Assembly (NCBI GenBank): GCA_013115125.1
Contig: JABANN010000001.1
Location: 1-64,000 of the forward strand
Source of the DNA: Perkinsus olseni
Taxonomy: Eukaryota
Direction: 5' to 3'
DNA length: 64,000 bases
In this document: piece by piece, positions 5,091-52,414 of the stretch
How positions within the stretch are numbered: position 1 is the stretch's first letter
How the letters are laid out: each line of letters opens with the position of its first letter
The notes under the pieces: generated by a model
Database searches by the model: none
What the model saw: the letters and a program-made list of their open reading frames with translations, nothing else
Told to the model about the DNA's origin: nothing
Program-made: the position numbers and the translations under genes

Positions 5091-5209
5091 CTGTCAATAC
5101 GTCAAATGTTTATAGTTTTACGTTGCTCGCGTTCTAGTGCGAAAATGGCACATCGTGCTTCGCTCCGCTTTTTTCGACAACAGCCAGTCATCACCAAGTT
5201 CCTTCTTTC

Positions 5210-25710: not shown

Positions 25711-27190
25711 GCAGCTGATCAACCCGATACCAACAGTTGTTTCTGAAACAAACTTATTCAACTATTGTGGCATCTGATCGAAGAAAGTGTTCGCTTTTGC
25801 CGCCGCTTTTAGTGTCAAGACGGATGTCAGTGATGACAGCCTCCTTGCATACACTCTTGACCATATCTTATATTGTCAATGCTGCTACACTGACCGCAGT
25901 CAAAGCTTCCATCTCGACGCCCGTGGCATCACGACAGGCGACCTCCGACGTTAGATGCACCCCTACGCCACCGGGAGCTCGTGCCAACTGCACATCAGCG
26001 AAATCCAACCTGATGGCACCTTAGTAGATATCGAGGATCGGTGATGTTACCTTACGTTATGACACAAGGGGACGAGATCAGCTGTCTTCTTGGCAGCCTG
26101 TACCCCGGCAACTTGAGCAGTCAGCGCTACCAGGCCTTTGGCCGACTCTCCCATTATGATGTCAGTAACTTCTCGCGAAATGTTCGTTATCTTGCATGAG
26201 GCCGTTGCCCTTCGGGGGTTGGGGGTTTTGGATGACACATCCACCATTCAGATGCCACTCGAAGACGCCCGGCTCAGGTGGGTAGGAGCAAGAGCTGAGG
26301 CCAGGCGGACCACCCCTCCTGACTGAAGCATTAATGGCGCGAAGGGGCTGAAAAAAACTAATTCGCCATTCGGAAAACGACATCGGCCGAGGAAAGAAAT
26401 ATCTTGCATCACACAGCTGAAGCACGTGCCCACAGCCCAGTCGGCGGCTACAAATTCGGGTGGTGCGAACAAGGAGAGAAGGTTCAAACTAAGTTGGTAA
26501 CCAGGAATTTCTCCGAGCGTCATGACTACAGAGGGCCGGTACGTTACCAGTAACGAGCACATGACTATTCCTGAGAGCGATGAGCTCCTCTGCAGAGTAT
26601 GCCGAGCCTCGGCAGCCGAGGGACAGGTCACCGAGGATGAGCACCGAGGATGAGCACATACGGTATGCTCACACCGTATGCTACTGCTGGTGATTATGAT
26701 CACAAGAGCTCTAGTGAGGATTGCTCAGGCTATATAGTGAACCCGTAGGACATCATTCACATCGGATGTAGTTCCTCGACGCTCATAGCCAACAGCCAAC
26801 AGTTCTCAGATAACGCCATGAACGCACACTCGGTGGGCCTGAAGAGCACCTGGGGGCTCACCGACCGAAGACCCTGTCACCACCACTAACCTCAAACTCG
26901 AAGCCCTAGTAGGTATGGAAAGCCGTAGCTTATGATGCGTGCAACTGCGTAAGGAATGTGGCAAATGGTCTGGCAGCGCAACTACGATGAATAGCGCGCG
27001 TCTAGCCACGCACGCTTCCCCATAAAAAATATTAAACGAATTAGCTAAGCTCAGACTGGCGTCTTGATAAATACGGCGGACTATCACAGCTAGGGCCATA
27101 AGCGTACCGTGCACTGACGGCGAAACGAAAGGAAAATTGGGAGCAGCAGCGGCTCTAACAAACTACGAGGTCCTCGGACCGGCCAACACC
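25711..27190. repeat. Segmental duplication, copy A (copy B ~30396-31575, offset ~4.7 kb)
   Basis: Near-identical over 25711-26016 vs 30396-30701, clearly diverged in moaC exon 1, and patchily alignable further on (e.g. ataagcgtaccgtgcactgacggc vs ataagcgcaccgtgcactgacggc). Confidence 0.85.
25754..26331 (-). pseudogene. moaC: moaC/MOCS1B (cyclic pyranopterin monophosphate synthase) copy 1, two nonsense codons
   Basis: Same two-exon structure as copy 2, but TGA replaces CGA (Arg before MVDV, 26248-26250) and TAA replaces TAC (Tyr of the conserved TIYDM, 25868-25870). Confidence 0.88.
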
Positions 27191-27330
27191 ATCTCAGTAG
27201 GAATCGTCCGGTTGTACAAAACCTGACTCCTGATTTGAAAATTCCGAGCTGAAAGAAAGATTATGCAACCATGAAGTACAGAGTTCGATGGCAACCCAAG
27301 GCCGGGCCTCAAGCTTATCATAGCGGGCCT

Positions 27331-27999: not shown

Positions 28000-28227
28000 T
28001 CGTGGTCAAATGCTCCGATTTGAGTTTGGTTTGGGGGTGACACAGACGGCCGCAAATGAGCACAACTTAGCGCAGCTGATTGTCGAGAACACGTGCCTCT
28101 GACAGCACAATAGTTCATCATCAGAACAAGACACTCTTCTCGCCGAAAACGTAGGCCCTATCATCCCTTGGGCCCCCATGGCGATTCAGCTGTGGGTAGA
28201 GATATCTTTTGGGAATCACCAGGCCCA

Positions 28228-28348
28228 ATCTCTCAGTGGTGACTGACACGATAATATCGTGTCAGTCACCACTGAGAGATCTTTCAATCAGCATAATAGG
28301 ATACCTCTAGGATATCGTGACGATATCCTAGAGGTATCCTATTATGCT
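28228..28348. repeat. Two adjacent perfect palindromes (26-bp arms 28228-28280; 29-bp arms 28290-28348; 1-nt centres)
   Basis: atctctcagtggtgactgacacgata-a-tatcgtgtcagtcaccactgagagat and agcataataggatacctctaggatatcgt-g-acgatatcctagaggtatcctattatgct. Arms checked base by base. Confidence 0.97.
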
Positions 28349-28715
28349 TGGCGCAATGGCGCGCCCCACTCGGACCTCAGCCAGTAACTCCACTTCTCAA
28401 CGCCTGCGGCAGCTGTACTGCCTGTTCTGAGCTGACAGCCCGGCATTTCCGAGTAAGGGAAATTCACGAATCGCAATGCAGACGGGAATCTGTTTCGATC
28501 GCGCGCGTGTGTCATGAGAGGAAGACAACCACTGACCGACTAGGATGGAATCTGGGGAAGCGGTGCCTCGTACGCCCATTGAAACCTGCAGTCTAAAGGA
28601 GGTTATCATGAGGCGAGCGAAAGCTACTCGAGCGGCCGTTTGCAGTTTCCAGGCGCCAGTAAGCTTTTCCATTCCTGTCGAGTTAGAGCCTGTCAGGAAT
28701 CTCATTTATTTTTGA

Positions 28716-30028
28716 ATGTATTCGACAAGAAGAAGACCTTGCCACACTTGTATCGACTCTCTAACGCTAGAAATTGAGGTGTTTAATAGAGCGGCGACGA
28801 GCTGCAGTCTTGCGGATGACCTTAAAACCAAGGTATGGAGTTACATGCCGACCCGCCACCTCCCCAACTCGCTCAAGGCTGCTGAAGTCACATCCGGTCT
28901 TCGAAGGTCTCATGGTTTCATCTGCGTACCTCGGGCGAAGCCGGGCCTATCTATCGAGTGCGCTGGTTGGCAAACCCTTGTTTTCATGAATAGCCAGCTC
29001 GCTAATTCGATCGAAGGCCTCCCGGGTGAGGGAGCTCATCTCATTGTGGGTTTGGAGGGCTCACCAGAGAATCCTAACATCGTACCCTATTTTCTTAATG
29101 ACTTTCGTATACAGCATTCGAGCTGTGTTGTTCGCGACGTGTTCTACTTCATCCCATGGGCACCCCCTCATACTCGCCAACTGGGGAGGTTCCACATCCT
29201 CACTCGTCAATTGCTATCACCCATTCGGTTGCCATGGGAAACTGCGGATCTCGCTGTTGCCGATGATACTCTCTTCGTTATCTCCGGTCGAGGTGACTAC
29301 AGCGTCTACATACTTTTGACTGAGTTGACTGGGGCATCGAGTGCTACCGGCAACGCCAAGCAAAGCGATACGGCGTACCAACTCTGTCGGGTGTCACCGC
29401 TCCCTATTGATCTGCGGGATACCATAGTGGGCGTATTGCCAGCTGGGCGAGAGTATCCCCAGGCTGGGGAAGCTCTACGAGCCTCGTGGGGTATATTTGG
29501 CAACCAAATGTCGAGCTTGCTGGACGAAGATGGCCGGCTGGTACTTATCCCAGAATTTCTAGATGCAACTGCCGTCGACGAGGTTCATCCACGAAAGCTT
29601 CTGTACAATGCCCGCGTTGTTGGTGGAGCTGAGCCCCTCTGCGTTCAGTCGTTGGGTGTTCTCTGACTCAAGTCCAAAAAACTCCTGCTTTGCAAGCCAG
29701 ATTCGTCCCGGCCACTGGTGGCACTATTTGTGTCGCTCTTCATCGTACTCACGCGCTCATATTGAAATTTACTGAAGGAGGCTCTGCCACTGAACTGTCC
29801 AGAGTACTCGGTCCTTCGTTCGCCGACTTCCCCTTCAAAATGTCCATCACTCGAGACTGGAGGATATCCATTCACATGCGTCCCGCCGGCCCCCTGGACT
29901 CACTGTATGATATTATTATCGAGCGCGATGAGGATGATATACTCCCACGTTGTGAGAGGGTCTCCTGCCTTCGACTGTGGGCGGTGCACGAAAGTCCTCA
30001 TTGTTGTTGTAGTAAACTTGTCTGTTGA
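28716..30028 (+). CDS. Lineage-specific hypothetical protein, intron-poor (316-aa ORF plus downstream ORF), weak F-box-like N-terminus
   Basis: Uninterrupted 951-nt ORF, unusual for this genome. LADDLKTKVWSYMP loosely resembles an F-box helix; the rest is beta-rich-looking sequence. Link to 29690-30028 is uncertain. Confidence 0.45.
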
Positions 30029-30438
30029 GACCGCTGATGCCATGAGTGTTACATGTTTTTGTCTAGTCGGCACATGATAGTTGTGTGGTAATCTCTAATC
30101 ATAGCCTAGGAAGGTTTAACAATCTGCGCTGGTTATGTCTGATTCCAGAAGGGGACTTCCTCCTAGGCAGAGAAATAGGTACAGCCACCATACACTGAGG
30201 ATGACGGAACTGAATGGTGTCCGCCTTGTACTTGAGGAGTTAATTTCATGTAATCATTATCATGATCGGAACAGAAGTAGAGCGAATCGATTGTTTTTCC
30301 CCATATTAAATTACTGATATCAAGCCATCATTTTCATATTATTAGATTTATTAGCTGTGGGTCGCAGTGAACATTCAAGCCAAACGCTTTATCAAGCAGC
30401 TGATTAACCCGATACCAACAGTTGTTTCTGAAACAAAC

Positions 30439-31047
30439 TTATTCAACTATTGTGGCATCTGATCGAAGAAAGTGTCCGCTTTTGCCGCCGCTTTTAGTGT
30501 CAAGACGGATGTCAGTGATGACAGCCTCCTTGCATACACTCTTGACCATATCGTATATTGTCAATGCTGCTACACTGACCGCAGTCAAAGCTTCCATCTC
30601 GACGCCCGTGGCATCACGACAGGCGACCTCCGACGTTAGATGCACCCCTACGCCACCGGGAGCTCGTGCCAACTGCACATCAGCGAAATCCAACCTGATG
30701 GGACACACCTTAGTAGATATCGAAGATCGATGATGTTACCGTATATTATGACACAAGGGGATGAGATCAGCAGCCTTCTTGGCAGCCTGCACACCGGCCA
30801 CTTGTGCGGTCAGCGCTACCGGGCCTTTGGTTGACTCTCCCATTATGATGTCGGTAACTTCCTGCGAAATATTTGTTATTTTGCATGAAGCTGTTGCCCT
30901 GCGGAGGTTGGGGGTTTTGGAGGACACATCCACCATTCGAATGCCACTCGAGGAAGCCCTGCTCAGGTGGGTAGGAGCGAGAGATGAGGCCAGGCGGGCC
31001 ACCCCTCCTGCCCGAAGCATCAAATGGCGGGGGAGGAACTGATGCAA
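30439..31047 (-). CDS. moaC: moaC/MOCS1B cyclic pyranopterin monophosphate synthase, intact copy, two exons, probable mitochondrial presequence
   Basis: PTHL...[10 protein letters not shown]...RRATA...[25 protein letters not shown]...[25 protein letters not shown]...KSGGKSG. The N-terminus is Arg/Leu/Ser-rich and lacks acidic residues. Confidence 0.95.
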
Positions 31048-31704
31048 GATGGGAACGAGGTTACTCGGAACTCGACCCCGCCAGAAAAAAATCTTTCATC
31101 GCTCGGCACAAGCACGTGGCGACTACCCTATCAGTAGTCGGACTCACAATCTCGCGCCGATAGTGCAACAAAAGCACTTTCGGTGGGATATGAAAAGCTA
31201 AAGACACGGGCACAAAGATCATGTTACCATCATTGACTTCCAACACGAAGCCTCTCCGGGATATAGAAAGCCTCGCGCTCGTGTAAATGCGTAAGGAGTA
31301 TGGGTACTGGTGCGACTGCGCAACTACATTGGATAGCGCGAGACTCGCGCTATCAGTCTGATGAGTCGCTAAACACGCGCCGCGAGTGTAGCGACTCACG
31401 CAAACTCAAACAATACTCAGCTCGGACTGGCGCTTTGGTTAAATGATCTTTATCAAATGGGATGGACAATGGCAGCCTGTGAAATAAGCGCACCGTGCAC
31501 TGACGGCTCCACGAATGACACAGTCGGAGCAGCCGAGGCTCCCAACAAACAACAAGGTCCTCGGGCAGGCCAAAACTATTTTGGGTCATATTGCGCGGGC
31601 ATTCGTGTTCCTCGGCACTGTGAGCACTTCAAGAGCATTTGAAATCTGAGTTTCGGGATACTATCCCGCCCTCCATTGTTCCGCTAGTCAATCATCTGAA
31701 CTAG

Positions 31705-32236
31705 TGGAGTGGAGAGTAGTGGAGACACGATGACACAATTTGCCATTGTGCCAAGAGCTCAATATGCCAGAACGCATAATAGGTTGCCAATAGGTTCGAG
31801 ACCGGTATCCGGAGCCGATCCCGGCAGTGATTGGGACAGTTGTTCCGTGGCGCCGAGCGCGACAGTAATACTTTGTGCAGCACGCGTGCACAAAGCGTTT
31901 CGTCTTCTAGCGTTTCGCTAGAAACCGTTTCATCATACTCACTAATCACTTATCATACTTGTACTTTCTTAAGTTTTCCTAATTACTATGTCCTCCAGTA
32001 ATTCTCAGTCTGCGTTGCGTTCGACTGGTGCCCAGACCCCAGTTGATCGTCTGAACATGACTCTTTCCGATATCATCCAAATGGATGGAGTGGAGAGTAG
32101 TGGAGACACGATGACACAATTTGCCATTGTGCCAAGAGCTCAATATGCCAGAACGCATAATAGGTTGCCAATAGGTTCGAGACCGGTATCCGGAGCCGAT
32201 CCCGGCAGTAATTCTCAGTCTGCGTTGCGTTCGACT
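31705..32236 (+). repeat. Interleaved direct repeats: 124 bp (31705-31828 = 32086-32209) and 31 bp (31996-32026 = 32206-32236)
   Basis: Exact copies at offsets 381 and 210. The second copies of the two repeats join through a shared CAGT. Confidence 0.92.
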
Positions 32237-32531
32237 AGTGGTAAGACGCACTTCTCGTAAAGTAAGGCTTCCAAATGTGGCCAACCATACTCACAGTTTT
32301 CCTCCAGCGGTGGGCGCACAAGCTGCCAGCTTATAAAACCTGTGGTCTCCGAGACGGGGTAAGGCACGGCAGTGCCGTGACGGCACCCAACTGGCGTCGC
32401 AAAGGTCGACAGGACCTCACGGCGGCAGCCACGGTAACGCGAAGGCAAACTGTGCTGTAGCCGACGGCGAATACCACAAATGGAAAACGCGGTTCGGCAG
32501 GCAGAAGTTGTCTCTCGAAGACCTCGATTGA
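31988..32531 (+). pseudogene. Disrupted Aly/REF/Chtop-like gene remnant (UAP56-binding-motif-like ends)
   Basis: N-terminal VDRLNMTLSDII resembles the N-UBM (DKMDMSLDDII). Downstream QKLSLEDLD* resembles the C-UBM (LSAEELDAQL). The interior is rearranged by duplications. Confidence 0.4.
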
Positions 32532-35500
32532 GAAAATGAGAGCGTCGGGAGGACGACGCTCGTGACGGACGGCCCGTCGAACCGAAACCGTAACCGAGCA
32601 CCAGACAGCTCGAGCCGGCACACAAGGCACTAGCTTGCTAGTGCGGGAGGCACAGCCGGGACACTAAGTGCCCTGATATGCGCTAAACATACCATAGCAC
32701 GTTGTGCCATTTGGGTGTACCGGGTGACATGAGCTGCCGGCTGGCTGCACATTGTCGCACATTTTTCCGAGGAGATGGGCCAACTGTGGGTCTCCTCTTC
32801 TTCTGAGGCGTCCTACATGATGAAGCTGAGTCCGGCGCTCCACGATTGCTCAGGAACGCCGGTCACAGCTTGTCGACAAAAGTGAAGAATCCCTTCCACA
32901 CGCTTCGGCATGAGCAACGGAACTCGATCGAAGTTAAGGAGGCACGGTAAGACGAATAGCCTGCATTCAGCCAAACGGATTCAGTTGGTCTACGGGGGTC
33001 CGATCAGCAATCTGATATATCATACAGGGTTGGCATCGCAAGGAACAACATGCGACTAGCATCAGAGCCTGTCATGCCAACCTCTGATGCAGAGGCCAAC
33101 GTAGAACGGTCCAACGGTCATTTCACGGTCCCCAGGCATGTACCTCCATAACGAGCTGAGCTCGTGGAGAACTGCACTAAATGGGGAACAGGTCCGATCA
33201 TCGGACCCGGAAGACTCATTACATCAAGTCGATTGCTGAGCCATGAAATGACCGTGGGAAAACACCACACCACAGCGCACAGGCTCGTGATGCATAGCAT
33301 GATGTGCGCTCAGAGTACTGCGCTCCACGGCCATAAGTACACAACAATGGAGGGAGACGGCGCTATGAAGAAGCCGCGATTAGAGATCAGAGAGAAGACA
33401 TTTCAGGATTAGCAGCATGAGCATGAGGCACCGGCCTGCCGACAGTCTACCAAATAGTATTCGTGCAGTAGTAATTGTATATACAACTACTACTGCACGA
33501 ATTCACATACGTATGTGAATTTCTGGTGCCCTCTCGTATGCTACAAGAGCTGGAAGGGCATACTCCCACAGTAAGACAGTCTAATAATGGTGATCGATCT
33601 CGACTCATCGAGCGATTCAACAAAAAGTAATACTCTCTTTGACACGCTGACGGACGTACTCGGAGTACGTCTGTCACGGACGGTCCGTGGAGAACGGTAC
33701 TCCCCGGTAGAACATGACATTTTGGTTTTACGATGGGCTAGGCGATGAGTACAATGTACCTCTACACCACAACAGACTAATGGCACTGCAATAGTATGAA
33801 AGGACTTCACAAGGCTGCTGGGAATGAGAATTTCTCATTGAGAAACCTTTCAAGTTGATGGTACGGCAGAGTTGGTGAAGTTCAAACACGTCCGTGAGAC
33901 CTCTGATGCTCGAGAATCTTCATCTTATTGATCGTGGAGAGGTCAAGGCAGCAGTACTCGCACTTATCCTCATCCTTCGCCTCGTCAGTGACCTCCGTCT
34001 CCATTACGTCGCTCGGAACATCTGATAACGAACCTAGATCCGAGCACATTGAAAAACTAACACCATAACCACCTCTATCTTATTGAGATATGCCGCTACA
34101 CATCCGCCGTCTGTGATCGCTGCTCTCCATCCTGTTCAATCGGCCTTCGAACCCGCAATCTAGTCATGGTGCTATGTACTAAAGTGGACTATGTACGTAG
34201 TTGCACGCATGCAGTGGGACACTGTTGAAGCCTGCACGATAGCCTTACGACGGTCTCATTCATTCGCCAGAATCCCACTGGAATGATAAATGGCATGGAA
34301 GCGGTATTCTCGAGCATGCACAGGTATACGCCACTTTACGATACTGATGGATAAACTCAACAAATATGCCACTTGGCACGAAATAACTGAATTAATACAA
34401 GCTGTCGCGCATGAGTCACTACAACTCAAGCAAATATCACTGCGCCGACAGAGGCCGCGCGCCACAAAACTTCATGGGGAACATGAGACATTCATGGCTC
34501 ATCATACTGATCCATGACTGGCCTCTTTCTCTCATGCCGAGGTATGTTGGGGACGAAGTCGTTCGGGGACGCGTGCATGTGCGGATGGGATAGATTGCGC
34601 TATACTTTCCTCCCTTCCTTCACTCCTCGGCGACGAGTCCTCGCGGATGAAGGCTATCCCTCTTTAGAGACCTGGGACCGCATCGAGTAGCCGATCGGGA
34701 CCACCGATTACAGTCATGCTGCTGGTCTATCATAAGTCCGTCGTGCCGCATGGGGACATTGGTGATCACAACACTGTCGCACAAGGGGCAGCGTGGCTCG
34801 CAAGATCGGGGACAGTCGACTCCAGCGGTGCTTCGTGACTCTTACATCTTTGTTGTTTTTCCACTCGCGTACGCCGTGTGGTTGGTGGTTTCGGTCGCAC
34901 AGGGGGTTTGTGCGAATGTCTATCCATTTGTAGCGTTTTACGTACGGTACGTGAGTTGATCGATGGTCGAATGGCCGGATAACTCAGAAATGAGTAAGGT
35001 TCCGGGGAGTTCTTTCCTTTTTGGTTTCATCAGAATGAGGTTTGCACTGTAGTGACAACTACCTTCATTACTGCTACGTACCCACCTTGCTCTTTGTGCG
35101 CCTTTGCTCGTACTACGTACGTTCGTCCCAGTGAACACGTGCGTTCCTCGTCATGCTATGGAACATACGTTCACCATAAAGCCAACAGCTAGATCAGTTT
35201 TCCCGAACTCCTCTCGAGTCCGGTCTTACCTCTCTCCAGTGGTGATTGGCTTAACCAAGAAAATGCTACAGTCGCCAGTTTTCTGACAATCTTTATCGTT
35301 ACCACCCCAGCTTCTCCATGGCTACATCTCATTCTCGGAGTGAAGCTCAGTCCAGAGGCTTTTCCTCCTCCCCCTCACTGGTAGGGTGAGACATATTGAA
35401 TGACAATGACCAGCATGACTGCATTTCAACTTCTTCGTTAGGTCCGATCCAGGGTGGCGTATATCATCTTCCACGTTACGCTTTTCCTGCTGGCTCTCAA

Positions 35501-35546
35501 ACCACTCGTACACATGGCTGAGAGGTTCGATGACTGCCACTGACAA

Positions 35547-36689
35547 ATGCCGCTTCACTGGAGAAGCTGGATCGTCACCTCTTCAGGACTATTTATCCCT
35601 GGTACACCAAACGGTTCGTCGCGGACGGTAATCTCTCCAAAAGTGATGTGCTCATTGGCTTCCTTGGTCCAATGGGCCATATCGGCTACTTTGGGAGCGG
35701 CATATTACTATCACTGCCTACAGTAAGATCGCTACATGTATCATTGTTGCTCCATTGCTAGCAGGTTCTCCGCTTCACTAAGGGGAAAATGCAACTCAGG
35801 AAAGGATACCAGTCTATATTCGCCGGGATGCCAGTCATTCTCTTGGCATGGATTGTTGGCAACACCTACGCGTAAGCACACTATACAATTCATAATGATT
35901 CGCTGCTATGAATCGTCTCCTCGGGCTTCAGGTACGTCGTGCTCATGTATTTTACGAAGGACGGTAAGCCCTCTGTGGCCACTCTCGTATATATATCCGT
36001 GAGTTGAGCGTTCAGATTTTGTATTCGGAGAACTGCCGCGGTACCAGCATGTAGCTCGTGATATATTAGTCTTCATGCTCGTGGAGGAGGTGATGCTTTA
36101 CTACCTGCATCGGCTGTTTCATGAATGGAAGGCAGGCTATAGGGCTGTGCACAAACTACATCATAGGTAACGAGCACAGAACAAGAATAACCTCCCCGAG
36201 GAAATTGAGTCCCGCCAGTGATATCGTGATACCTAGGTTCACAGCTACCGTCCCTCTTCAAGCCCTACACAGCCACCCGATCGACCAAATTGTGACCAAC
36301 GTGACGCCAATACTGGCCGGGACAATCATAATGCAGTCTCACGTAAGGCATAGCATCAGGGAGAATCCTGATTTGACGAGTCAGATACTTACCTTCACAT
36401 TATGGCTGACATTTGCCTTCATCAACACCTTGGTGTCCCACTCAGGATACGACCACATTTTTGTAGAAGGCAGTGCGGCAGGTGGGTTTTCAATTCAGCT
36501 CATATCAGGTATTGAACCCCGAGATGCATGACCTGCACCATGAGCGTGGTAATTGCAATTACGGAGTACTCGGCATTCTCGACTATTTACATGGTAGAGA
36601 GTTCACAACTAATCTGTACTGACGCTAAACTCTGTCAAGGTACATACCGCGTTAGAGAATCCGGAGCCGAAACTGGAGATGCCAAGTAA
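35547..36689 (+). CDS. Fatty acid hydroxylase / sterol desaturase family membrane enzyme, multi-exon (5' end uncertain)
   Basis: His boxes FYYLHRLFH, VHKLHH, HSHP, SHSGY and MHDLHH...NCNYG..GILDYLHGTYR. Confidence 0.88.
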
Positions 36690-37729
36690 AGGAATCAGGT
36701 TCCCTCTGTCGTGCGAATTGGCTTGCCGTGCATATCACATTGCATTCGCGATTCAACGACGACGAACATGTTCTTCGTAAAAACTTTTTTTCCATTGCTT
36801 TCTTCACCATGGCATTCGACATCGACTGAGTGCCGGCGAGAAAGACCGAGATACATTCACCAAAATGGTGGATCACCATTGATGATGGTATTGACGCTGC
36901 GGTCGTTTCTCACCAGAACCCCACATACATTGCGTGAAGTTGAGGGAGGCGTGACATTCTCAGTTCACATTGATGATGCGGTGACTGCAACGCTGTATCC
37001 TCTTGCACCGCAGACGAGAACCAGTTCAAACATGAATCAACCACGGTGTTTTCAGCCCCGATGCCTTCCGATGCCCACGTAGGAGCTGTCGGTACACCAA
37101 CGAGCCGCCCCATCTGATAAATTGCCGATCTTACTTCTTCTCAAGATTTAGCGTGATAGAGAGGCTGTGGCTAACCGTCGACGATGTAGAGTTGTCGCTA
37201 ATGTTCACTAGGGCACTAAGGACCCCCCTTCGGGGCACTAGGGAGCCTTCGACAGCATTTTTACGAGTCTATATGCCTAGGGCTACTGTACCAGCTTCAA
37301 GCTGGTAGTGTCTACTAAGGAAAGATTCAAACGAACGAGTCCGCACGATCAAATACGAGTCTGCCAGTTTGCTGTACAGAACGATGATACTACTCAAATT
37401 TTTGAGGTTGAGCACACGCAGGTTTTTGAGCATGTACTCTTCGTAATATTCCTGCTATCTTACTCAATGCCCCAAGTAAACCTCCTAGACCCTCCTCCGA
37501 TAAGACGCATGCAGCGTAGTCAGCATCGCAATCGACGGGTTTCATCTCGGAATCGAACCGGCAGATGCTTTTCGAGACCATCTTCTAGGGAAATCCCACA
37601 CTCGTAATTCGGTACTCGACGAATAGAGTCGGGGACTCGAAACTCGACACCGACAGATAGGAAGTAAGCACGTTGCATCACTCGGTGTGAAACAGGCCGA
37701 GGACTTTACCAACGGTGACAGCACGCTTT

Positions 37730-39524
37730 TCAGTGGAAGGTACTTTGCTCGATAGTCAGATGGCCATTGTCGCCAAACCGAGCCAGACTCACGCCGCCAT
37801 CGTCACGCACCTGCAGAGAAGTCTAATTTGTCGGGACGGCCAGGCATGAGGCATACTATTATTTCGGTGATGCCGCAGTTCTCTCCGCCCATCCTGAGCC
37901 AGGCTTCCGGAGGGAGCTGCAGAGCCCTACAGACAAAGTACCTGAGTGGGAGCTTCCTTGCGGAGCGATGGCAGTGGCTGCCCAGCCTACCTAATGACGT
38001 TCATGTGGCAGACTACGATGTAATACTCATGTCCCTTGGTGAGGTCCTCCTCGTCGTCACCGTCCTCCCCTACCGCTTCTTTGCTGGGCCTACATCAGCC
38101 AGCGTCTCAAGTCCGCCTGCCTGGCCCGCTCGATCTTCCCACTTATAGTAATCCTCTGATATCTTCTTGGTTTTCTGCTCGGTTTTCTTCTGTTCCTCTT
38201 TCTGTGGCTTGTCCTTCTTCTTTTGGGTCTTCTTATGATCTCGTGCTCGATGAACGTACTTCCTGTACGCCGCCTCTAGCCTGTTACCCTCCTCTAGCAG
38301 GCGAGCAGGCCTTATCTTCGAGTAGCTCTGAGACGATGAGCACTGCTCACCACTCCATAACCCGGCACACTGACCCTCTCAGACATCGGCATCGGCACAC
38401 ACGGCCAGCCCTCCGCGAGAATCGGGTCCGGATCTTCATAATGGACTGTCTCCTCGCCTCCGAGGACCTATACAGGAGTTCTTTACCGGCACATCGCTGC
38501 GCTACCGCCCTACCTCGTGAATGATCTCCGCGGTTTGTTTGGCCCGCAGCACGTCCGAGGAGATTAGCTTCTTGAACCTGTCGACGTTCCCGTGAACCTG
38601 ATTCCCTCAAGCCAAGACGCCCCTACTTTATCTTTCTCGTGCCGTACCGGTCTGACTTCATACCATCCGTCATCTGCTTCAGCCGCTGGCCTGGGCAACA
38701 GCCATGTAAACTACCACCCCATGAGGTCAGGAGCGCTGCTACCGACTATCCGGCTTTGCTCCTTGCCAAGCTCCGTCAGCTCGTTCTCATCCGAGTCCAG
38801 GTTGTACTGACCATGTCGTATGAGCAGCAAGTGCACAGTCGGTTTGTACTCCTTCTTCGAGGCAGACTGAGACCGAAGCACTCAGAGGACGGCTCCCCAA
38901 CGATTAGTGGTGCACCTTCTCTTCCCCTTCGCCTTCCTTTTCCGTAGACTTCTTCTCCTGGGCAAAGCAGTGAGACTCCTCCCGTGTGAATAACCTACTT
39001 TTTTGGCATCTTCACGAGGATTACGGCCATCCCAATCCGAGTTCCAAAGCCTTGTCCATTTCCTGAAGTAACACGGTACCGAGATCAAGCACTCGGCAAC
39101 CAGATCATTACGATACGAGTATTGTGTGGACCACACAGTTGTGATAGCCCGTGACTCAGGTGATTGAGTGGTGATTCTAGCTCCTTACCCATATTGGCCC
39201 ATGGTGATCTCTTCCATGCTCTTATGCTTCATCTCATCCTTTATCCAATCCCTGGGATCCTCCTCACACCATACTCTAGGCCTCGGACGGTTCCTAGAAT
39301 CGCTCACGGCGATGAACTGAGAGATGACGAGATATGCGAGAACGATGGAGACAAGCAAAGAGACGAACTCACCCCGCAAGCTACTGCAGACACAGGCAAA
39401 ACGGCCCGGTGGAGGAACTGACGGGACATGAGAAAACTAACAGCAATCTGAGCAACAACTATGGCAACCGCCGCGAAGGGTATCGAGACAGCCTAACGGC
39501 GAATGCCGCAAGGACCCGTCCCAT
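37730..39524 (-). CDS. PGAM5: PGAM5-type mitochondrial Ser/Thr protein phosphatase (histidine phosphatase family), multi-exon
   Basis: [10 protein letters not shown] (WDxNWD motif), [11 protein letters not shown]...[34 protein letters not shown] and FGDNGHL. Start is approximate. Confidence 0.92.
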
Positions 39525-39643
39525 AGGGGAGGGCTCAGTCAAGGAACGGCCTATCAATTATTCGAGGAGAGTCATAGCTTTCTTTCCTTCTGCCCAAGCG
39601 CAAGAGCAGCAGTAAAAAGTATCCGAAACGATACCCATGGCAG

Positions 39644-40307
39644 TCACATATTGATGCTTCTGAAAAACTCCACAATCTTCCAAGTGTGTATCCCCCGAAC
39701 CTCCAGCGACCCGATGTGGAGACGAACCTGGACGCCGGCCGAAGTGACCGAGCCCACCCTTCTCGAGGAAATTACCGGGGCCTCGCAGATCTCCGACAGA
39801 TGACGGCGGCATTGGTTTATGTCTCCCCGAACGTGCCTCACAATCGTGTTGACCTGCGGACAGCTTTACGCTCTGGTCCACACAACACAATCAATACGAA
39901 GAGTGTGAGTTCAAAGTCCAACGCCGACAGCCGGCTCAGTCGGACTAGCACCGATGCATTCGTTCCAAGAGGGATGATTTTAGACAAGTTTAGTCAATCC
40001 GAACAAGGTAGGATATGTACCTCTCGGCCAGACTTCATGAACCGCTTGTAGACCGGATACCGCCCATTAACCGTCTTCAGAACCTAACAGCCATAACTAA
40101 CTGAGCCGAATGGCGCTGTGCACTGCTCACTTTATAGTCGATCCTCTCTCCACCAGGGGTTGGTGCCGACTCTCCCTCCTGCCCATCCTCCTTGATGTGC
40201 TCCACCCTCCTCTCGGGAACAGGATGGACGTATCGTACTGCTGACACCACTGGATGGCGAGAGGACGGCCTCGCTGCCAGCTGGCTGAGGCACCACCCTC
40301 GCAACAT
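39644..40307 (-). CDS. MRPL49: Mitochondrial ribosomal protein mL49 (Img2/MRPL49), multi-exon
   Basis: Presequence-like MLRGWCLSQLAARPSSR, then YKVLKTVNGRYPVYKRFMKSGRE|VNTIVRHVRGDI...GSLEVRGIHTWKIVEFFRSINM. Confidence 0.82.
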
Positions 40308-40558
40308 TATTGGATGAGACGATAGCTGCGCGCAGGGGCATGTGAACGCGTCTTCCCCTAGCGACGTCGCGTGCCTTGACGTATCCGAGAGGTACTGGCC
40401 CCTCACTGCAGCTCGGACGAATACACGACAGCTAGGGCGAAGCGTGAGTATCAGAGCCCCCCATCCAGCGGCGGGTCGGATGCGTGATGGAGCCCTCATC
40501 CACGACAACTCAAGACATCCGCAAACTCGAAACTTTCACCTCTTAACAGAGAATCGTG

Positions 40559-42384
40559 TTAGCTTTGAAATGAGCTGTTGTTGCTATTCGTCGATATTTG
40601 AGGAACCGGTGTGTTGTACTGTACGTAGCTTCTAAGCTCTATCATCTTGCCCTTGATCTCCTCGACCATCGGATGCCCGCTGCCGTGGGTGATGCTCAGG
40701 ATTCGGCACTAAAGGCAACGCACTAGTCATCACAAGGTCCTATGCCTGGTGCGCGAGAGAGCCCGTCCCGACCTACCGCCTTCGCAAAGTACGCTAGGGC
40801 TTCTCGCAGTGAACCTGAGGAAGGATTCGAAAGAAGGGCCAGGGTCATCTTCCAACTCACCATCGTCTAGTGAGAGGATCTTCGCCAGCATGTAAGCGTT
40901 GACGCCAAGGCAGACATCGTACTCTTGCCCGCCAGAAAGAGAAACCTGCGATCAAATTCCTTAGGAAAACATGCTTGAGAACCTTGTTATATTTTATAGG
41001 AAAGAGGCGACGGCTACGCAGTCTGCCAGCTGTCAGCACAACGTTATGGCGGATTCGAACCCAATTCGAGTCCACCACGGCGGGATGAGCTCACCCTAAG
41101 CTCATCGACGAGCCGTCCCGCCCTCGCCGCTTCCTTCCAATCTTGCTTCTGAACGCTAAGCCGCAGGTCTTCCTCTGCATAAACCAACTTCGGATAGGAG
41201 CTGTCCTCATCAGAAAGCGTTGGCCCTGAGAACCCAGCCGCTCATGGCATCCCCAGTTGGCACACATTGAAAATCTCACCTTCCCTCGAGCATCTTTCAC
41301 AGGAGCAATCAAACTTGTATTGGTCATGAAGCCGCTGCCGCCGCTTGGACGTCGGCGTTATGCATACGTCAACGTAGGATATGAACAGCTCGCCTCCTTG
41401 CGGTATGGATCGTATCGCTCGAAGTGTCCTGCGAAGGCAGAACGATTCAAGACTTGATGCTCAACAGTGAACCAGCCCTACACTGTAGAGCCTGAGAAGG
41501 TGAGAACAACATTCGGGGAGCAACTGTGGTTCATGGCGGAGACCTCTCGGTAGAACCCAAGTGCCACGTCCTGAGACCAAAAGCCTATCCTCGGTGAGCG
41601 AGTAAGAACGACCGACCTGCAGAGAGTCATTCGTGATCGTAACAGCGTTGTACCGCAAGACACGCAGGAGGTCCAGCATGATGGGGACAGGAGGGGAATC
41701 TGGTGACACTAATTGACCAGACGGGAGTGCTTGTAGTTTCGTTACCATTCAAATAGCGGCTAAGTAGGATTGCCGTGGAGCCTGAGTCTGCTTCTAGTGT
41801 ATCGTTAGCATCGGCGTGCCGACACATTTCGTCCAGACTACTCTGCACCTGCGAAGCGCTGAAAGTGGCTCGGGGCCCAGGCCAAAGGAAAACCGCACCG
41901 TCTCATCTTCCTCCGCGAGCCAGTGTAGTTTAGCAGCTGCAAGGAACGTGGTGAGAGGAGCTGAGGAGGCGTGGTCGGCAGGGAGTTTCTTTATCTGAAG
42001 CATCAATACTATCATGAGAGCGGCGTTGGGCGGTCGTACCAGTTGGCACTCCCGCTTGTGGGTCCCCAGCTTATAAGCGGCCTTCGCACACCCCTTGCTG
42101 CAGTAGACAGCATACCGACAGCCACTGCATTGGTAGTACTTAGACGCTGAGCGAGACAAGACGCATCGATTATTCCTGCTAGAATATCGACTATACTTAC
42201 CATCAGTGGTCAAGCACCAGTGGCAGCAGGCCTTAGCCATGGCTGGTGTGACGGAGTAGACGAGAGGCTTGTAAGTGGCGATCAGGTCACCCGGAATGTA
42301 GTGAACGGCGTCATCAGCGAACAAGCCTCGGCCGCCAACCGAGCTCGACTTTATGCTGGGAGTTGGTGAGCTCCTCTTGGACAT
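40559..42384 (-). CDS. SET and MYND domain lysine methyltransferase (SMYD family), multi-exon
   Basis: GGRGLFA (S-sequence), CHWC...CSGCRYAVYCSKGC...HKREC (MYND), AMNHSCSPN (SET), YVD...YKFDCSCERC (post-SET) and C-terminal ITHGSGHP. Confidence 0.92.
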
Positions 42385-43495
42385 GCTAGGAACGAACTAG
42401 CACTGCAATGATCTAATAAGGTTGAGGTACGCGGGAGAATTGACCCGCACGCAACGAGTTCTACTCAGCCTTGCTCTCGCAACCTTCGAACTCAACGACA
42501 TGAAAGAGGGGATGTACAGAAAACAGACTAGCCTCAAACATGATAAGCCGATGGCTCATGTTACCAGGTAGCAGTTACCTCTTTCCTCAGGCAATCGTCA
42601 GGCCCACGATTGCCTCGAGACTAAGTACTTACTCGACCCCCTAGTATTGTTCGTATACTTCTCGTCGTCGGTTCCCTACAGTGTGGAACCGCCTGTGGCT
42701 TTGAAAATGTCGACCACTGGAAAGGCGTATGATGGCAAATCCCTGATCAACACAGCAAGTAATTGCAAGCATATTGCCATAATTTCAATAAAAAACATAC
42801 GAACCCCCATTCGGGAGATCCACACAGCAACTCTTTCGAAGCAACTAGTTACTAGTTGTCCAACAAGAACTACACAACTTAACTTTCTCTATGTACTGAT
42901 ACCGTTCTACGCAGCGTTCTACCATGTACATCTCAGTTTCCCCATCGAAGACCACTTGAAGTCCTTTAAGGGAAGGAAGATCTTCCTCGGAACCGTACAG
43001 GAAACAACCTCAGCGGAGTTTTGGCCGTCGTGGGACATGCCAATACATCCGAGATAGAACAGCGCGTAAAACTCTCAGAATCACAGTCATAATCTGAATC
43101 ACAGAATGAATCCTCCTCTCCGCCAATATCGCGTCGCGACAGCGCGTATGGCTTCTCTGACGAAGCCCCTCGAATCGGGAATCGTCTCCGGCTTGTTACG
43201 CTCCAATGCTTTGCCACAAAACGGTTTAAAGCGCTCCTTGTCCTTCCGGAAGTACATCGCCGATATGCATTCCATCGGGTACCCTATCTCGCGGGCCGGG
43301 GATAGTGCAGGAGTCTACGACCAATGTACAGCCATTGGCTGTCAGCCAACTCTTAAAAACCTTAGTGGAGAACATCGCCTTTGCAAATGTTTCCTCCCTC
43401 AGCCACAGGGAGGAAACCTTCAGAGAGGCGGGGCCGAAGGGCAGAGGCATCTGAGGGCCTCAGCTCCTTCGGCCATTCACCCTTGAGTAGCTGAG

Positions 43496-43599
43496 GACGC
43501 CGTACTCGTGCTCGATCACTGACAAAAGGAGATGAACAAACATCTTAGACGCCGTACTCGTGCTCGACCACTGAAAATAGGAGTTAGACAGATATCTTA
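43496..43599 (+). repeat. Tandem ~52-bp repeat (two clear units) running into the gap
   Basis: gacgccgtactcgtgctcga(t/c)cactga...atctta repeated at 43496 and 43548. Confidence 0.8.
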
Positions 43600-43900
43600 G
43601 GGCCTAATAGTCCGGGGCCTGGCCCCGGACTGGTGGGGGGGGGGGGGGGTGGGGGGCGGGGGGGGGGGGGGAGCAGTTTGTGAGATGTGGGGACGGGGCG
43701 CGCCGGGGGGGGCGGGCGGGGGGGGGCAGGAGAGGGGGGTGGGTTGTTTGNNNNNNNNNNAATCAAAAAAATTTTTCCCCGCCTAACTGGTGCTCTACCA
43801 TTAAAATTTGTTTTTACACATATATCTTGGGCCAAATTCGCCGGGGGCGGGCCCCGGTAGTGGTGCTGCACAATTTTGGCCCAGCACGAGTCTCTTGAAC
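43600..43900. other. Assembly gap (N10 at 43751-43760) with low-quality G-rich flanks
   Basis: Ns flanked by long G homopolymers and noisy A/T/G/C runs typical of degraded read ends. Confidence 0.85.
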
Positions 43901-45047
43901 TTCTTTGAAGCAAGTTCAACCACGGGCCTCGAGCAGAGGCTTCAAACTCGACTCTACATTCTTGGTCTTGAAACTTGGCCCCAAATTAACAGGCAATAAG
44001 GGGGCTAGTCCTCGACCCTAAAATATACGCCCCTCAATATCATCGACCGCATCGACGCACCAGACCCCGTCCCGCACTCAAATAGCGCGTCCCAGCAGCC
44101 GGGACGGTACCAATTTGCTTTAGGAGTCGCTTTCGGAGGCATTATGCAAATGAGAACTTGCGAGAGCAACCGAGAGACACTTCCACGGAAACAAGCCGCC
44201 TCTGATATGATAGGAGAGCGTCACACGGTTCGTCGAAAAGGGTGCTGACGACGCCGGAAGGCGGCATGTCAACGGGGAAGGTAACCTTCCGAAGGTTTTT
44301 CTCTGAAATCTGAGGCGCCGGATCGATTCAATTGCAAAGGAAGCAGTTGGCTACACGTCGGACTCCCGGGTTCCTACCTCGGAATCCGAGGATACCGAAA
44401 CACGGTAGAGAGACGTAGCTAACCTTCTGAATAATCAGCTTGTCGTCTTCGAGCTTACCTGCCAACCCTCTCATACTGAGCAACGTCCCATTGATGCATG
44501 GCAGGCGAACTTACGAGCAAGCCGGACTAGTAATAGTATAACGGTTATACTCGGCGCGCCTCAGCAACAGTTATATTATAACTGTAATACCGAAAAGCCG
44601 CCAGGCACGCCGAGCCCGTGGTGAAATAAGTAGAGGTCACGACAACCTGGCAGCCAGTCGCCTCGCCACTAGCTGAGGCTGAGAAGGAAACGACGCCGAG
44701 GAAACTGGAGTGAAGGACTATCATAACAACTCAGTATGACATTTCCGACTAGTTCCAGTGAAGATTCTATACCCATCCAGAAACCATGCATGGGAACCAG
44801 CAGCCTAAGCGGCGGATAATCGTAAATCACTATCAGTGTATACGGCGGGATCTGTTATAATATGCCTGCGGCATTTTAGAACCCATTGAACTGTGTAACG
44901 CGACCATGCAGGTACCCGCTGACGTGATTACATATCTGCTATACTGGTATGCTATATCTGGTATGCTGATACTGATAACAGCTCACATGCGTGAACATGA
45001 CGGAATCCAAACCTCACTATCCCGAGGGTAACATGCGAAAGCATTCT

Positions 45048-47975
45048 TCAAACGATGAGCATTTTGAGACCAATGCCAGTGGGAGAACTGTCTGAAGCCG
45101 TGCTACGGTACATGAAGTCGTTAATAAGCAAAAGAGCAGCCTCAGGGGCATCTTGAGGTACCATATGGCTGGCGTTTACGACCTGAAGCCAGATTTCGCT
45201 TCGAAACTGCGACTGAGAAAAGAGCGACCCCGTACCCTGGCGAAGGTGAGACCACCAAGACCGCCTAGCCTTTCAACAGTGCGCACCGTGGCACCAAGCT
45301 TGGACGACGGCAGCTGAATGACAGACGATCGCCGGCTGAATAAGCACAGAGGGATGTTGACCCACCTTGAACGGGCTCTCAGTCGCGCTGGCGAACCTCG
45401 ATTTTCCTGGCCAGTCGAGCTGTTCGGCTGTCTCTAGAACGCTGAGCCAGTTGCACAGGAAATCCTGATCCCCAGCATAAAGCAGCACCTGCGATAAGGG
45501 AGGCAACCTGCTGAAGCTGTAGCACCCAAAAACGGGCTCCTCAGACCACTGAACAGACTTAGGACTGCCCGAGGGATACCCTCATGCTACAGACGAAAGA
45601 AAAAGGAGCAGGAAACTCGGAAGCTAGGGTTGGATGCTAAGACAACAACTCATCCTCCAGCCACTACACTAATTCCGTCGGCCAACAGCCGTGCCAGCTG
45701 CTTTTCCGCAGACGTCGAGAAGAGTTCTCGGATATGAAATGCCGCTGTGACCTGAATTCAAAATGGTCACCTGCCTTCCCTCACTACAGATGAACTCCAT
45801 TCTGCCCCTGCAGATGTGTGACACGGACGCTGCGCACAGCGATGAAGATCTATTCCCTGTGCATCGCGTCAAAGGACGTGCAGCGGCAGCCCCCGAACTT
45901 CGCATACAATGCTACATTCTCGTTTGATGATTTCCACCCTATATGAGTTCCAATTGCCCTCTGCACAGTGTGGTTATTGAAATACGCACGAATCTGAGAA
46001 GAAAAAAACTGAGAGATTGGAATCCAATCAGTAACCGGTCTTACCGGTCGGTCATCTAAGCAGTCTGGGAAAGGACCGCACTTGACCCTCAAGTCGTATC
46101 TGTCAAGAAAGGATAGCAGATACATATCAGCAGAAATCTTCCGGTAGCAACTTTCTACTGAAAACTACCCCAGCTACACTTTCAAAAGCTACCCTATTAC
46201 ATGCTCCACTTGGCATTACTAATGGGGTCAATGAGCTTCCTGGAACATCTGTCGTACAAAGCCTGGCAGCTTAAACGGCCTAAAAAGAGGTTCGTATTCA
46301 TACATCGGTATCTCGCCGCCATTCCCACCAGTCAAGCAGGACGATGTCTCCTTCACACAGTCCTCCGCTGCCGCCACCATACTGTTGTACCTGAGTTACT
46401 GTTGATGCCACTTCAACGAAGGAGGCTGGTACTACTACGCAGCTGAGACCCTGCGTGGCGCGGTGCCGCTCTCGTAAGCCATTCGAGGGTACGACCGCCA
46501 CCTAGGGAGGTACAGGGAGACAATCAGTACAGAGGATTCCATCTCGATAAAGCAGTTCTCACGAGGCGAGCCCATCGTAAGCAGATGAAGCAATGCGAAG
46601 GAAGTACTCGTTCCGACTTACACCCTATCTGAGCTGAAGTAGCCGTTCCCGATAGCAATCCCAACAATGTCAATCACGGGCTTAGCTCCAGCCCTCTCGT
46701 CGCTCCTTATCCTCATAACTGTCTCGGGGATGAACTGACCTGTGGGATGGAAGCTCTTAACGCACTATCATTCAATCGGATGCCTGTCGTTAACTTGCCA
46801 TGGTTGTGAGCGGCGAGCCCAGGTGCTAGCGGAAACTACGGAAGCTTACCCGCATAGGATTCGCCAGCTAAGAATACCCTCCGATTGTACTGCGGATACT
46901 TTGCAAAAAACGCATGTAAGAATTGCGACCTACAAGGCAAGTTGATGCGCCGCCAAAAACACCTGAGTTAAGGCCTACAGCAGCTCTCCGGCCCTCTTTG
47001 TGGAGCTTATCAGCGGCCCAGTGCTGAAGCCCGTGCCAGCGGGCTGATCTATCCATATACCATTCGCCTTGGACGTCCAAGAATGCCTAATGATATGCAT
47101 ACTGGCGGAGTTCGAGATTCGCCCAAAACATAGTTCTCATCGCTACGCCCAGCGGTGGATACGATTGACTTCCTGATCTTCGGTGACCCGCACCACACGG
47201 GTCATACCAATAGCAGCGCCTCCCCTATTACGAATTAATTTCCGTTTTTTTGCCACCATTGGCGACACGACAGGGGCCGTTTTCGAGTACCATCCCTGCC
47301 ATGCTGCTGAAGCCCGGGCCACCATTTATCCAGACAATCATCGGATCGGTCTCAGGCGAGTGTCTCGACTCGAAGAACATAAAAAAGTACCTGCCCGGGA
47401 TCGAACCTGCGACCACACTGCGGATATCACTGTTCTGCTACCGTGTGGTATGTTTCTTCAAAGTGATATATCCAGATATTTGCCGGACGTTCGGATCGCA
47501 TGGACCTCCGCTGCTGCTCTCTCGGACATCGAAGACGTAAGGGGAGCTCGAGCGGCCTGCAAAGAAACACATCAAAAACCAGGCCCGCCGATTAGGAGGA
47601 AACCCTACTTCACCCACAAGGAAGAGCCAGCGAGTTGACACACGGCTCCATAGACTCGGCAAGCACTCATAAAGTACAAGTCAGAAACAGCAGTGGCACC
47701 GTCGGTCTCCACGGTAGGAAAGTAGAGTGGGCGGTCCAAATCCATGGCGATGTAGATGTCGAGGGGCTCCCAGTAACAATGCTATGGGCTACTAATACTC
47801 ACGCTATCCTCGCAGCTCTCGATTCAAGAATTATCGATTGCCAAGGTAATGGGGACGATACCAGTGTACTACCTTGCACAGGGCCCAAATAGCCATCCGT
47901 GTCCAGGGAAAGGCGACGACCGAGGGCTGCACCGACATAGAGAAGAGTCGCCAGGAGACCAGGAGGCCTCCCCAT
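45048..47975 (-). CDS. Serine carboxypeptidase, peptidase family S10, secreted, multi-exon
   Basis: Signal-like MGRPPGLLATLLYVGAALG, YFFMFFESR..PETDPMIVWINGGPGFSS..G...ENGP, DQPVGTGFS-type motif, catalytic GESYAG, VLLYAGDQDFLCN and NASHMVPQDAP. Confidence 0.93.
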
Positions 47976-52169: not shown

Positions 52170-52414
52170 TCCGGAACCAAGGGGACACCAACTGCTACTG
52201 CCGTTATCACCAGACCACCTCTCCCAGTCCACAACACAACAGCCGTTCACACTAACAATGAAAAGAGTGGATATGTTGACAGGAAAACGGTGGAGGCTTC
52301 TTCTACGGCGCCTCGTCGGTCAATTATCGTGTCTTCTATAGCTACGTAAAATCCAGAAATCTGTGGATAGGCCCTCAGAGGGCCGCTCTCTAAGGCCAAA
52401 TTATCTACAAAGCT

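Follow-up and report, generated by a model that had tools for sequence, protein, structure and literature searches.

Paired palindromes in the Perkinsus olseni genome as probable excision footprints of hAT-type DNA transposons

The paired palindromes in a 64,000-nt stretch of the Perkinsus olseni genome (GCA_013115125.1, contig JABANN010000001.1, positions 1 to 64,000; here called the window) are very probably footprints that hAT-type DNA transposons left on excision. Within a pair, both palindromes are built on one 8-base word, T, in a fixed register, and the 1-base centre of each complements the outer base of T. In the most frequent form, T(1-7) is followed by the reverse complement of T and by T(2-8), which makes 22 nt and adds 14 nt over the empty site. 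For Ac/Ds excision, the part of the literature cited here (PMC5873905) gives the rule that a palindrome has at its centre the complement of the base adjoining the element. DNA transposon excision normally leaves finished genomes without a visible trace, and therefore lifetime jumps, excision-to-retention ratios and the share of footprints in spontaneous mutation are hard to measure. In P. olseni, one fixed 22-base scar is so frequent that the genome sequence by itself suffices for a count of past jumps.

Register and frequency of the palindromes

A preliminary description of this stretch had listed seven palindromic loci, and palindromes are present at all of them. They exceed chance, both singly and in pairs. 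Against 100 block shuffles that preserve trinucleotides, the window holds 37 palindromes with arms of at least 7 and centres of 0-1 nt (shuffle mean 8.3, maximum 16) and 8 adjacent pairs within 25 nt (0.05 in shuffles, maximum 1). Nearly the whole excess lies in the class with 1-nt centres (20 versus 3.2 for arm 7, 4 versus 0.8 for arm 8, 7 versus 0.26 for arms of at least 9), while 0-nt centres occur about as often as expected by chance (6 versus 4.1). The sequences had been called unrelated, which is true between sites; within a pair, by contrast, both palindromes carry the same 8-mer in fixed register.

Counts of perfect compact triples single out the length of this word. In the window, there are 5 triples for T=8 (0.0002 expected) and none for T=6, 7 or 9-12; in 39 other loci totalling 300,283 nt, there are 33 for T=8 (0.001 expected), 1 for T=7 and none for T=6 or T=9-12. 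With up to two mismatches allowed, the compact motif is matched 12 times in the window versus 0.21 expected. Centre lengths other than 1 nt are near expectation in the 300-kb set, where 0-centre palindromes with arms of at least 7 number 19 versus 17 expected. Zero-centre pairs number 13 versus 2.9 in shuffles, only 3 of them with a shared overlap, and zero-centre triples are weak (2 versus 0.29 for T=5, 1 versus 0.02 for T=6). These triple counts led us to reject triples with a 0-nt centre, and every T length except 8, as the main class.

A census of 653 kb yielded 524 distinct 1-nt-centred palindromes with arms of at least 7. Perfect compact scars account for 266 of them and compact scars with one mismatch for 55; an exact spaced partner exists for another 51 (control 0.3%) and a partner with one mismatch for 41 (control 7%), leaving 111 partnerless. 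Both centres obey the complement rule in 133 of 147 compact pairs and in 17 of 19 spaced ones. Short overlaps and fillers occur among the spaced pairs, and partners up to 65 nt apart still have the 8-mer in common, with complemented centres. T is biased to nTnnnnAn, if weakly (41%): T2/A7 occurs in 109 of 266 cases versus a background of 24% (p 1.5e-9). Scars are rare in stop-free frames of at least 200 aa, which hold 4 of 133 while covering 17.7%.

The +14-nt product is the dominant one among detectable forms, the detector being blind to precise excisions and to deletion footprints. Eight letters separate the duplication cores in 125 cases, and spacings of 1-5 letters are without excess. Short footprints of the maize type that keep both cores likewise show no excess (34 versus 49 expected for 2 letters between the cores) at a sensitivity of only tens of events. 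Plain tandem copies of T were seen 39 times versus 16, for which ordinary tandem duplication may account.

Footprints in the window and their empty counterparts

The list of seven loci was sound as far as it went, and many more had been overlooked, including four perfect overlapping pairs recovered by an exact-motif scan (at 26600, 32365, 43328 and 44276). Of the original seven, four fit the hAT rule, two fit it loosely and one, at 33459, fails it with its zero-base centres. The features, none of which has a strand, are as follows.

26600..26621, perfect compact footprint
28228..28348, spaced footprint of 26-1-26 and 29-1-29 palindromes with a 9-nt filler, both implying one 8-bp duplication
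31332..31398, spaced footprint, left hairpin 11-1-11, decayed right hairpin centred 37 nt downstream
32365..32386, perfect compact footprint within a dispersed repeat
33459..33521, pair of 0-nt-centred palindromes with only a 4-nt overlap in common, outside the hAT rule
33648..33703, spaced footprint with centres at 33662 and 33696
33668..33689, compact 22-nt footprint with 1 mismatch, nested in the preceding one
33824..33845, perfect compact 22-nt footprint
34623..34644, candidate decayed compact footprint with 2 mismatches
36865-36886 and 42559-42580, further decayed compact candidates from the scan allowing at most 2 mismatches
42842..42858, single partnerless 8-1-8 palindrome
43328..43349, perfect compact footprint
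44276..44297, perfect compact footprint
44529..44590, two 1-nt-centred palindromes, 8-1-8 and 9-1-9, with a 6-nt core in common
52370..52391, compact footprint with 1 mismatch, right after the stop of a citrate synthase frame

Both hairpins at 31332..31398 imply an identical 8-mer, making them exact partners. The locus at 44529..44590 fits only with 2 mismatches, as one spaced or two decayed compact footprints. At 42842..42858, the implied 8-mer is self-complementary and would probably leave a +7 scar; the pieces of X7 and X8, which come from diverged strains, contain 7 gap letters over 42536-42909, whose place within the piece is not shown.

Polarisation by paralogues succeeded for part of the inserts; searches of the same genome gave no covering paralogue for 28228, 31332, 42842 and 44535. 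Paralogue C1770 is without the inserts, which amount to +14 and +41 nt in the window copy. At 33824..33845, the paralogue carries the 8-mer only once and falls short by exactly 14 nt; at 33648..33703, it has the site in single copy and lacks 41 nt; and 33459..33521 is 33 nt longer than its paralogue. Among the other copies of the repeat at 32365, 12 of 13 are 14 nt shorter and one is 24 nt shorter; one copy bears a +14 scar of its own at another place. Relative to the empty paralogous sites, which hold the target T only once, the scar is the derived state. The duplicated block 25711-26316 / 30396-31005 was useless for polarisation, its one palindrome being common to both copies.

Source elements and competing origins

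The preliminary description had also offered, as one option, that both broken ends are hairpinned and reopened after hAT/RAG-type excision. Our data speak for this option, and it can be narrowed to hAT-type geometry because of the 8-bp duplication and the complemented 1-nt centre. The genome also has the corresponding genes: 11 matches to the hAT dimerisation domain and an open 819-aa transposase frame with DUF4371 and a hAT dimerisation domain. Its Pfam domains make this protein a putative hAT family member; it has no sequence match among the solved structures of the PDB, Hermes included. Elements of hAT type with terminal inverted repeats (TIRs) and exact 8-bp duplications exist in the genome, and one copy, with trimmed ends, sits between two 1-nt-centred palindromes that imply an identical 8-mer. 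This case joins the flanking contigs of a collapsed repeat, paired via their shared 8-mers. Only 1 of the 5 element duplications read has both T2 and A7, and the target bias thus finds no confirmation in the resident elements. Two candidates were rejected: the multi-copy repeat at 35043-35235, whose other copies run on beyond the end of the window and have no TIR/duplication structure in the stretch examined, and a 9-bp reading of the L047 junction, which by eye requires 2 mismatches and does not account for the left flank.

Mutator elements are a possible co-source of scars, and it could be argued that MULEs with 8-bp duplications, forming flank hairpins as hAT elements do, make most of them. 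The genome has 18 MULE transposase-domain matches, several in long open frames, and Muta1 forms flank hairpins (PMC5499845) and 8- or 9-bp duplications (PMC5225508), according to the parts of these papers cited here. The same part of PMC5225508, however, describes excision that is about 90% precise and insertion without target preference, whereas the scars carry the T2/A7 bias, and compact scars with T=9 or T=10 are absent. Since, moreover, the element between the paired hairpins has hAT domains, we consider a predominantly MULE origin unlikely.

Still less probable is an origin independent of transposons, in which replication template switching or a Pol theta fold-back copies 8 nt backwards and then resumes. 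The genome encodes a Pol theta orthologue, the part of bioRxiv 10.1101/2023.04.19.537475 cited here describes template switches that make perfect hairpins de novo in one step, spaced pairs do contain short overlaps and fillers, and the 0-nt pair at 33459 and the 13 zero-centre pairs lie outside the hAT rule. Template-switch mutations as described there, however, lack a fixed register and an association with transposons; templated synthesis predicts variable insert lengths and registers, but a single sharp peak at 8 is seen, with other centre lengths near expectation. It gives no reason for complemented centres and a common 8-mer in distant partners, nor for nTnnnnAn. For the same reasons, iterative fold-back break repair as a habit of this genome, the headline of the preliminary description, is not supported. 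The two seemingly iterative cases, 33668-33689 and the right flank of L047, are read instead as repeated insertion and excision at one spot, 33668..33689 being probably the second such event there.

An 8-nt staggered cut by a nuclease or an abortive transposase, with ends filled, hairpinned and rejoined and no element ever resident, seems highly improbable to us. In its favour, the 133 perfect scars far outnumber intact elements, of which the same 653 kb has 3 with CAG-starting TIRs and 8-bp duplications, and neither the matches listed nor the paralogues include an allele pair with the element in one and the scar in the other. However, repeated cut-and-paste itself gives many donor scars per element; the fill-in followed by a 1-nt-offset hairpin that this explanation needs is what insertion and excision supply; and one element does sit between such hairpins.

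Fold-back chimeras of amplification or assembly deserve almost no credence, even though contigs break at two of the palindromes and the library type is not on record, since a separate study's contigs for two other samples, at a depth of 80-100, have the identical sequence, decayed copies exist, paralogues differ by exactly 14 nt and coding frames are avoided. These contigs, from runs X4 and X6, have 0 differences over 26400-28241, 28267-30435, 32208-34818 and 35206-43500. The matches listed break at 28242-28266 and at about 31370-31394, and none of them bridges the centre of the first long palindrome or the second hairpin at 31380.

A model of hairpin opening and the record it leaves

Our preferred reading, hAT excision, suggests the following model. 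An element would insert and duplicate its 8-bp target T. On excision, the transposase would nick one base into each flank and seal the flanks as hairpins, as is known for hAT elements, and the base at the hairpin tip would therefore complement the one in contact with the element, which is the rule seen in the scars. A host nuclease may then open the hairpins no less than 8 nt from the tip and as far as about 29 nt from it, as the arm lengths suggest, leaving long 3' tails. As these tails would begin with complementary copies of T, they would usually anneal over those 8 nt, and trimming and fill-in would give the compact +14-nt form. Along a minor route, joining further out would yield the observed pairs of separate palindromes with short overlaps or fillers, presumably by microhomology and possibly with Pol theta. 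Scars would survive where no coding frame is hit and would form clusters at places of repeated insertion. An inventory of repair genes, which had been proposed as a check, found one Ku-domain locus, three ATP-dependent ligase loci and one SNM1A-like nuclease (nearer SNM1A, E 1e-45, than Artemis, E 3e-18) besides Pol theta; it did not establish that any end-joining gene has been lost.

The mechanism of hAT excision is already known; what we did not find described is the stereotypy of its product and its readability across a genome. In the parts of the Ac/Ds studies cited here (PMC5873905, PMC1978519), footprints with P nucleotides in plants, S. cerevisiae and C. albicans resemble the scars in their palindromic inserts on a complemented base and in hairpin opening followed by microhomology joining. 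Those footprints, however, come from a reporter locus and are heterogeneous and mostly short, with a longest P insert of 3 nt in C. albicans and arms up to 20 nt in S. cerevisiae, whereas the P. olseni scars are natural and genome-wide, with arms up to 29 nt and one dominant product. Hermes shares the flank hairpins, the 8-bp duplication and the nTnnnnAn preference (cited parts of PMC6900584, PMC2803484), but differs from the 819-aa transposase, which has DUF4371.

RAG/Transib cleavage makes a blunt hairpin and a 5-bp duplication. The P nucleotides of its coding ends are also palindromes from opened flank hairpins, but without a central base; only 33459-33521 and the few weak 0-centre triples resemble them. 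At a hAT excision site in Ascobolus, that of Ascot-1, palindromic additions reportedly occur, and its footprints are said to have been proposed to contribute to spontaneous mutation; this was reportedly one locus and not a genome-wide census. Our literature search, which mostly lacked subscription papers, found no genome-wide census of such scars.

The scar has 14 constrained bases, which by chance would occur at about 4e-9 per position; it can be counted, mapped and dated by its decay without an outgroup, and it keeps the target preference of departed elements. Extrapolated to the 40-Mb genome, the number of perfect scars comes to about 4,400. We lean slightly towards the view that, in this lineage, transposase-made hairpin ends are nearly always opened at a distance from the tip and annealed via the target duplication, and seldom repaired by short-footprint joining. 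Most detectable excisions would then leave a self-identifying 22-nt scar, and the perfect scars, together with many more decayed ones, would be a datable genome-wide record, legible in a single assembly, as well as a major contributor of non-coding insertions and hairpins. The one-line motif test can be applied to any eukaryote as a way of asking in which lineages hairpins are opened at such a distance.

It had also been suggested that such repair could create hairpin RNAs de novo. No RNA runs contain the stretch, and an Rfam search gave 0 matches. Annotating such palindromes as regulatory sites or microRNA precursors is to be avoided. A hairpin RNA is possible, as 28220-28356 folds at z -19.7, but it is a trivial consequence of any palindrome.

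Palindrome excess and the eight-base rule

The palindromes are real. All seven loci of the preliminary description were found in the window, where palindromes with arms of at least 7 nt and centres of 0-1 nt number 37, against a mean of 8.3 and a maximum of 16 in 100 trinucleotide-preserving shuffles. Their suggested pairing was borne out as well, with 8 adjacent pairs against a shuffle mean of 0.05 (maximum 1). The excess is concentrated at centre length 1 (arm 7, 20 versus 3.2; arm at least 9, 7 versus 0.26 in shuffles), and 34 of the 37 palindromes lie within 24-48 kb, a stretch with few recognisable genes and with dispersed repeats. The window opens a 272-kb contig, of which it covers the first 64 kb, in a eukaryote assembly of 39.9 Mb and 3,353 contigs. 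Two further samples, from a separate study, yield contigs that match long stretches of it with 0 differences and are interrupted at two of the palindromes. For the window's citrate synthase, the best named matches are mainly in myzozoan alveolates (Perkinsus, dinoflagellates, Amoebophrya; about 54-59% identity); the top named match is a protein labelled ostracod (46%), so an alveolate lineage is probable rather than certain.

The overlapping pairs obey a single formula, T(1-7) + rc(T) + T(2-8), with T an 8-mer. Five perfect compact cases with T = 8 occur in the window (expected 0.0002), none with T = 6, 7 or 9-12, and 12 with up to two mismatches (0.21 expected). In the long pair 28228/28290 the two members stand apart yet obey the rule: joining the left arm's last 7 bases to the complement of its centre gives the same 8 bases as joining the complement of the second centre to the 7 bases after it. 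The same spaced rule holds at 31332 and 33648. In the 653-kb set described below, 133 of 147 compact pairs and 17 of 19 spaced pairs have both centres complementary to the outer base of the target; the spaced pairs have centres separated by 13-65 nt and arms of 6-29 nt.

Fit of the seven loci to the eight-base rule (window positions)
28228, exact
31332, exact
33648, exact
33823, exact
42842, loose; without partner, implied target self-complementary
44535, loose; two mismatches required
33459, no fit; 0-nt centres, 4-nt overlap

The genome was sampled at 39 loci (300,283 nt, 120 kb of it on the window's own contig; one 68-nt locus excluded), picked by position or contig number regardless of repeats. 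This sample holds 33 perfect scars with T = 8 (expected 0.001), one with T = 7 and no perfect triple with T = 6 or 9-12. Palindromes with 1-nt centres and arms of at least 7 nt number 133 versus 16 expected, and other centre lengths are close to expectation. Scaled to the whole assembly, the count of perfect scars corresponds to about 4,400, with a Poisson range of 3,000-6,200 that is too narrow because scar counts are over-dispersed (p 0.011). The density was measured in this genome alone and may not be unusual among eukaryotes.

A larger set (653 kb, 106 sequences, duplicate loci removed), biased since it was partly picked near hAT matches or repeats, contains 524 distinct palindromes, 266 of them in perfect and 55 in one-mismatch compact scars. 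Of the rest, 51 pair exactly with a spaced partner (control 0.3%) and 41 do so with one mismatch (control 7%), which leaves 111 without a partner. Compact scars are under-represented in long stop-free frames (1/33 and 4/133, versus about 18% cover).

Scars and empty sites

A paralogue on contig C1770, aligned to 33394-34170, is without the scar inserts: it lacks 14 nt relative to 33824, with the 8-mer in single copy, 41 nt relative to 33648-33696, and a net 33 nt relative to 33459. The host repeat at 32365 is 14 nt shorter in 12 of 13 other copies and 24 nt shorter in one; the copy at locus L107 bears its own +14 insert at a different position. Because paralogue and repeat copies lack the inserts, the scars are, judging by these alignments, derived insertions at a duplicated 8-mer. 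No allele pair of occupied site and scar was seen.

Pieces from diverged strains (runs X7 and X8) have 14, 21 and 7 gap letters within 26766-27166, 33108-33473 and 42536-42909, respectively; all three totals are divisible by 7, which is what polymorphic scars would give. A minor X7 contig (depth 21) has 4 letters in place of the first long palindrome (28227-28276) and picks up again just ahead of a 9-nt filler, probably a secondary palindrome deletion.

Probable excision mechanism and candidate sources

The palindromes are very probably footprints of hAT-type excision. hAT transposases are reported to turn the flanks into hairpins (PMC6900584), with cleavage that agrees with the flanking nucleotide (PMC1978519), and hAT footprints are described as palindromic, with the adjacent base's complement at the centre and with joins that often fall at microhomologies (PMC5873905). 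The 8-bp register, the complemented centres and hAT elements with 8-bp duplications favour the earlier proposal of hairpins at both flanks. Opening of both hairpins 8 nt or more from the tip would leave 3' tails that start with complementary copies of T; annealing over T would yield exactly the 22-nt compact form, and joining further out the spaced form. Yeast Pso2 and Artemis, in contrast, are reported to cleave 2 nt from the apex (PMC3299998), and a different opening or extra resection would therefore be implied here. Among scars keeping both target cores (low-complexity cores left out), the 8-letter form occurs 125 times and 1-5-letter forms show no excess, in a count that precise excisions and deletions escape. 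Pol theta, an SNM1A-like nuclease, one Ku-domain locus and three ATP-dependent ligase loci are encoded, a set compatible with classical end joining but no proof of it.

Flank-hairpin excision chemistry is already established, and published footprints from single loci may well include the 22-nt product. A literature search confined mostly to open-access papers found no natural genome that carries a single stereotyped scar in thousands of copies recognisable from sequence alone.

The genome has 11 hAT dimerisation-domain matches. On contig C521 an open frame of 819 aa carries hAT domains and matches no solved structure; it belongs to a two-copy element collapsed in the assembly. One copy ends in 16-nt terminal inverted repeats and is flanked by an exact 8-bp duplication; the other, whose flanking contigs were paired by inference from shared 8-mers, has trimmed ends flanked by 8-1-8 and 6-1-6 palindromes implying an identical 8-mer; on our reading, this element was rejoined to, or copied back into, its own donor site after the hairpins there had been opened. 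Three further elements combine CAG-starting terminal inverted repeats with 8-bp duplications; two more matches of that scan are probably chance. Scar targets (n=133) have T2/A7 in 109 of 266 strand readings versus a 24% background (p 1.5e-9), the same bias as the reported nTnnnnAn preference of Hermes (PMC2803484; PMC6900584), and both bases are present in only one of the five element duplications read.

Mutator elements are a possible source: the genome has 18 matches to Mutator transposases, and Muta1 reportedly produces flank hairpins with 8- or 9-bp duplications (PMC5499845; PMC5225508), but scars with T = 9 were absent from both the window and the 300,283-nt sample. Nested cases, the scar at 33668 within the one at 33648 and, by eye, a compact form with one mismatch in the flank of locus L047, are better explained by insertions that recurred at the same place than by the iterative snap-back synthesis first proposed. 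A hairpin-RNA function is unsupported, as no RNA run carried the stretch and Rfam gave no match.

Other observations

Zero-centre pairs somewhat outnumber those in shuffles (13 versus 2.9) and may have a source other than hAT excision. A few zero-centre triples with 5-6-nt units (L013:848, L027 about 5279, L066:515, L078:7372) are possibly footprints left by an element of blunt-hairpin (Transib/RAG-like) type. At G000:C3157:5799-5866, the terminal motif of one element stands in two inverted copies only 68 nt apart, possibly a minimal MITE; the motif has 18 genome-wide matches versus 3 for a control. A 4.5-kb element with terminal inverted repeats (L028:4796-9276) has a duplication readable as 7 or 9 bp.

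Hairpins with 7-nt loops are mildly over-represented (arm at least 9: 3 versus 0.22 in the window, 4 versus 0.5 at other loci), and the one at 31871 is common to repeat copies.

Hairpins with 7-nt loops (window positions)
31120
31871
41084
42589
43389

Long G runs at 43635-43761 adjoin a 10-N scaffold gap, with a 52-nt tandem pair and an 11-1-11 palindrome (43609) upstream. A direct local duplication (25711-26316 and 30396-31005), whose coding stretch looks MoaC-like by eye, has 99% identity in its first half and 88% in its second, a step that suggests partial gene conversion. Four mutually unrelated dispersed repeat families lie at 35043-35235, 39903-39992, 32334-32694 and 31707-32026, some with dozens of matches elsewhere. 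An inverted pair, 47381-47409 and 54109-54137, resembles tRNA 3' halves by eye.
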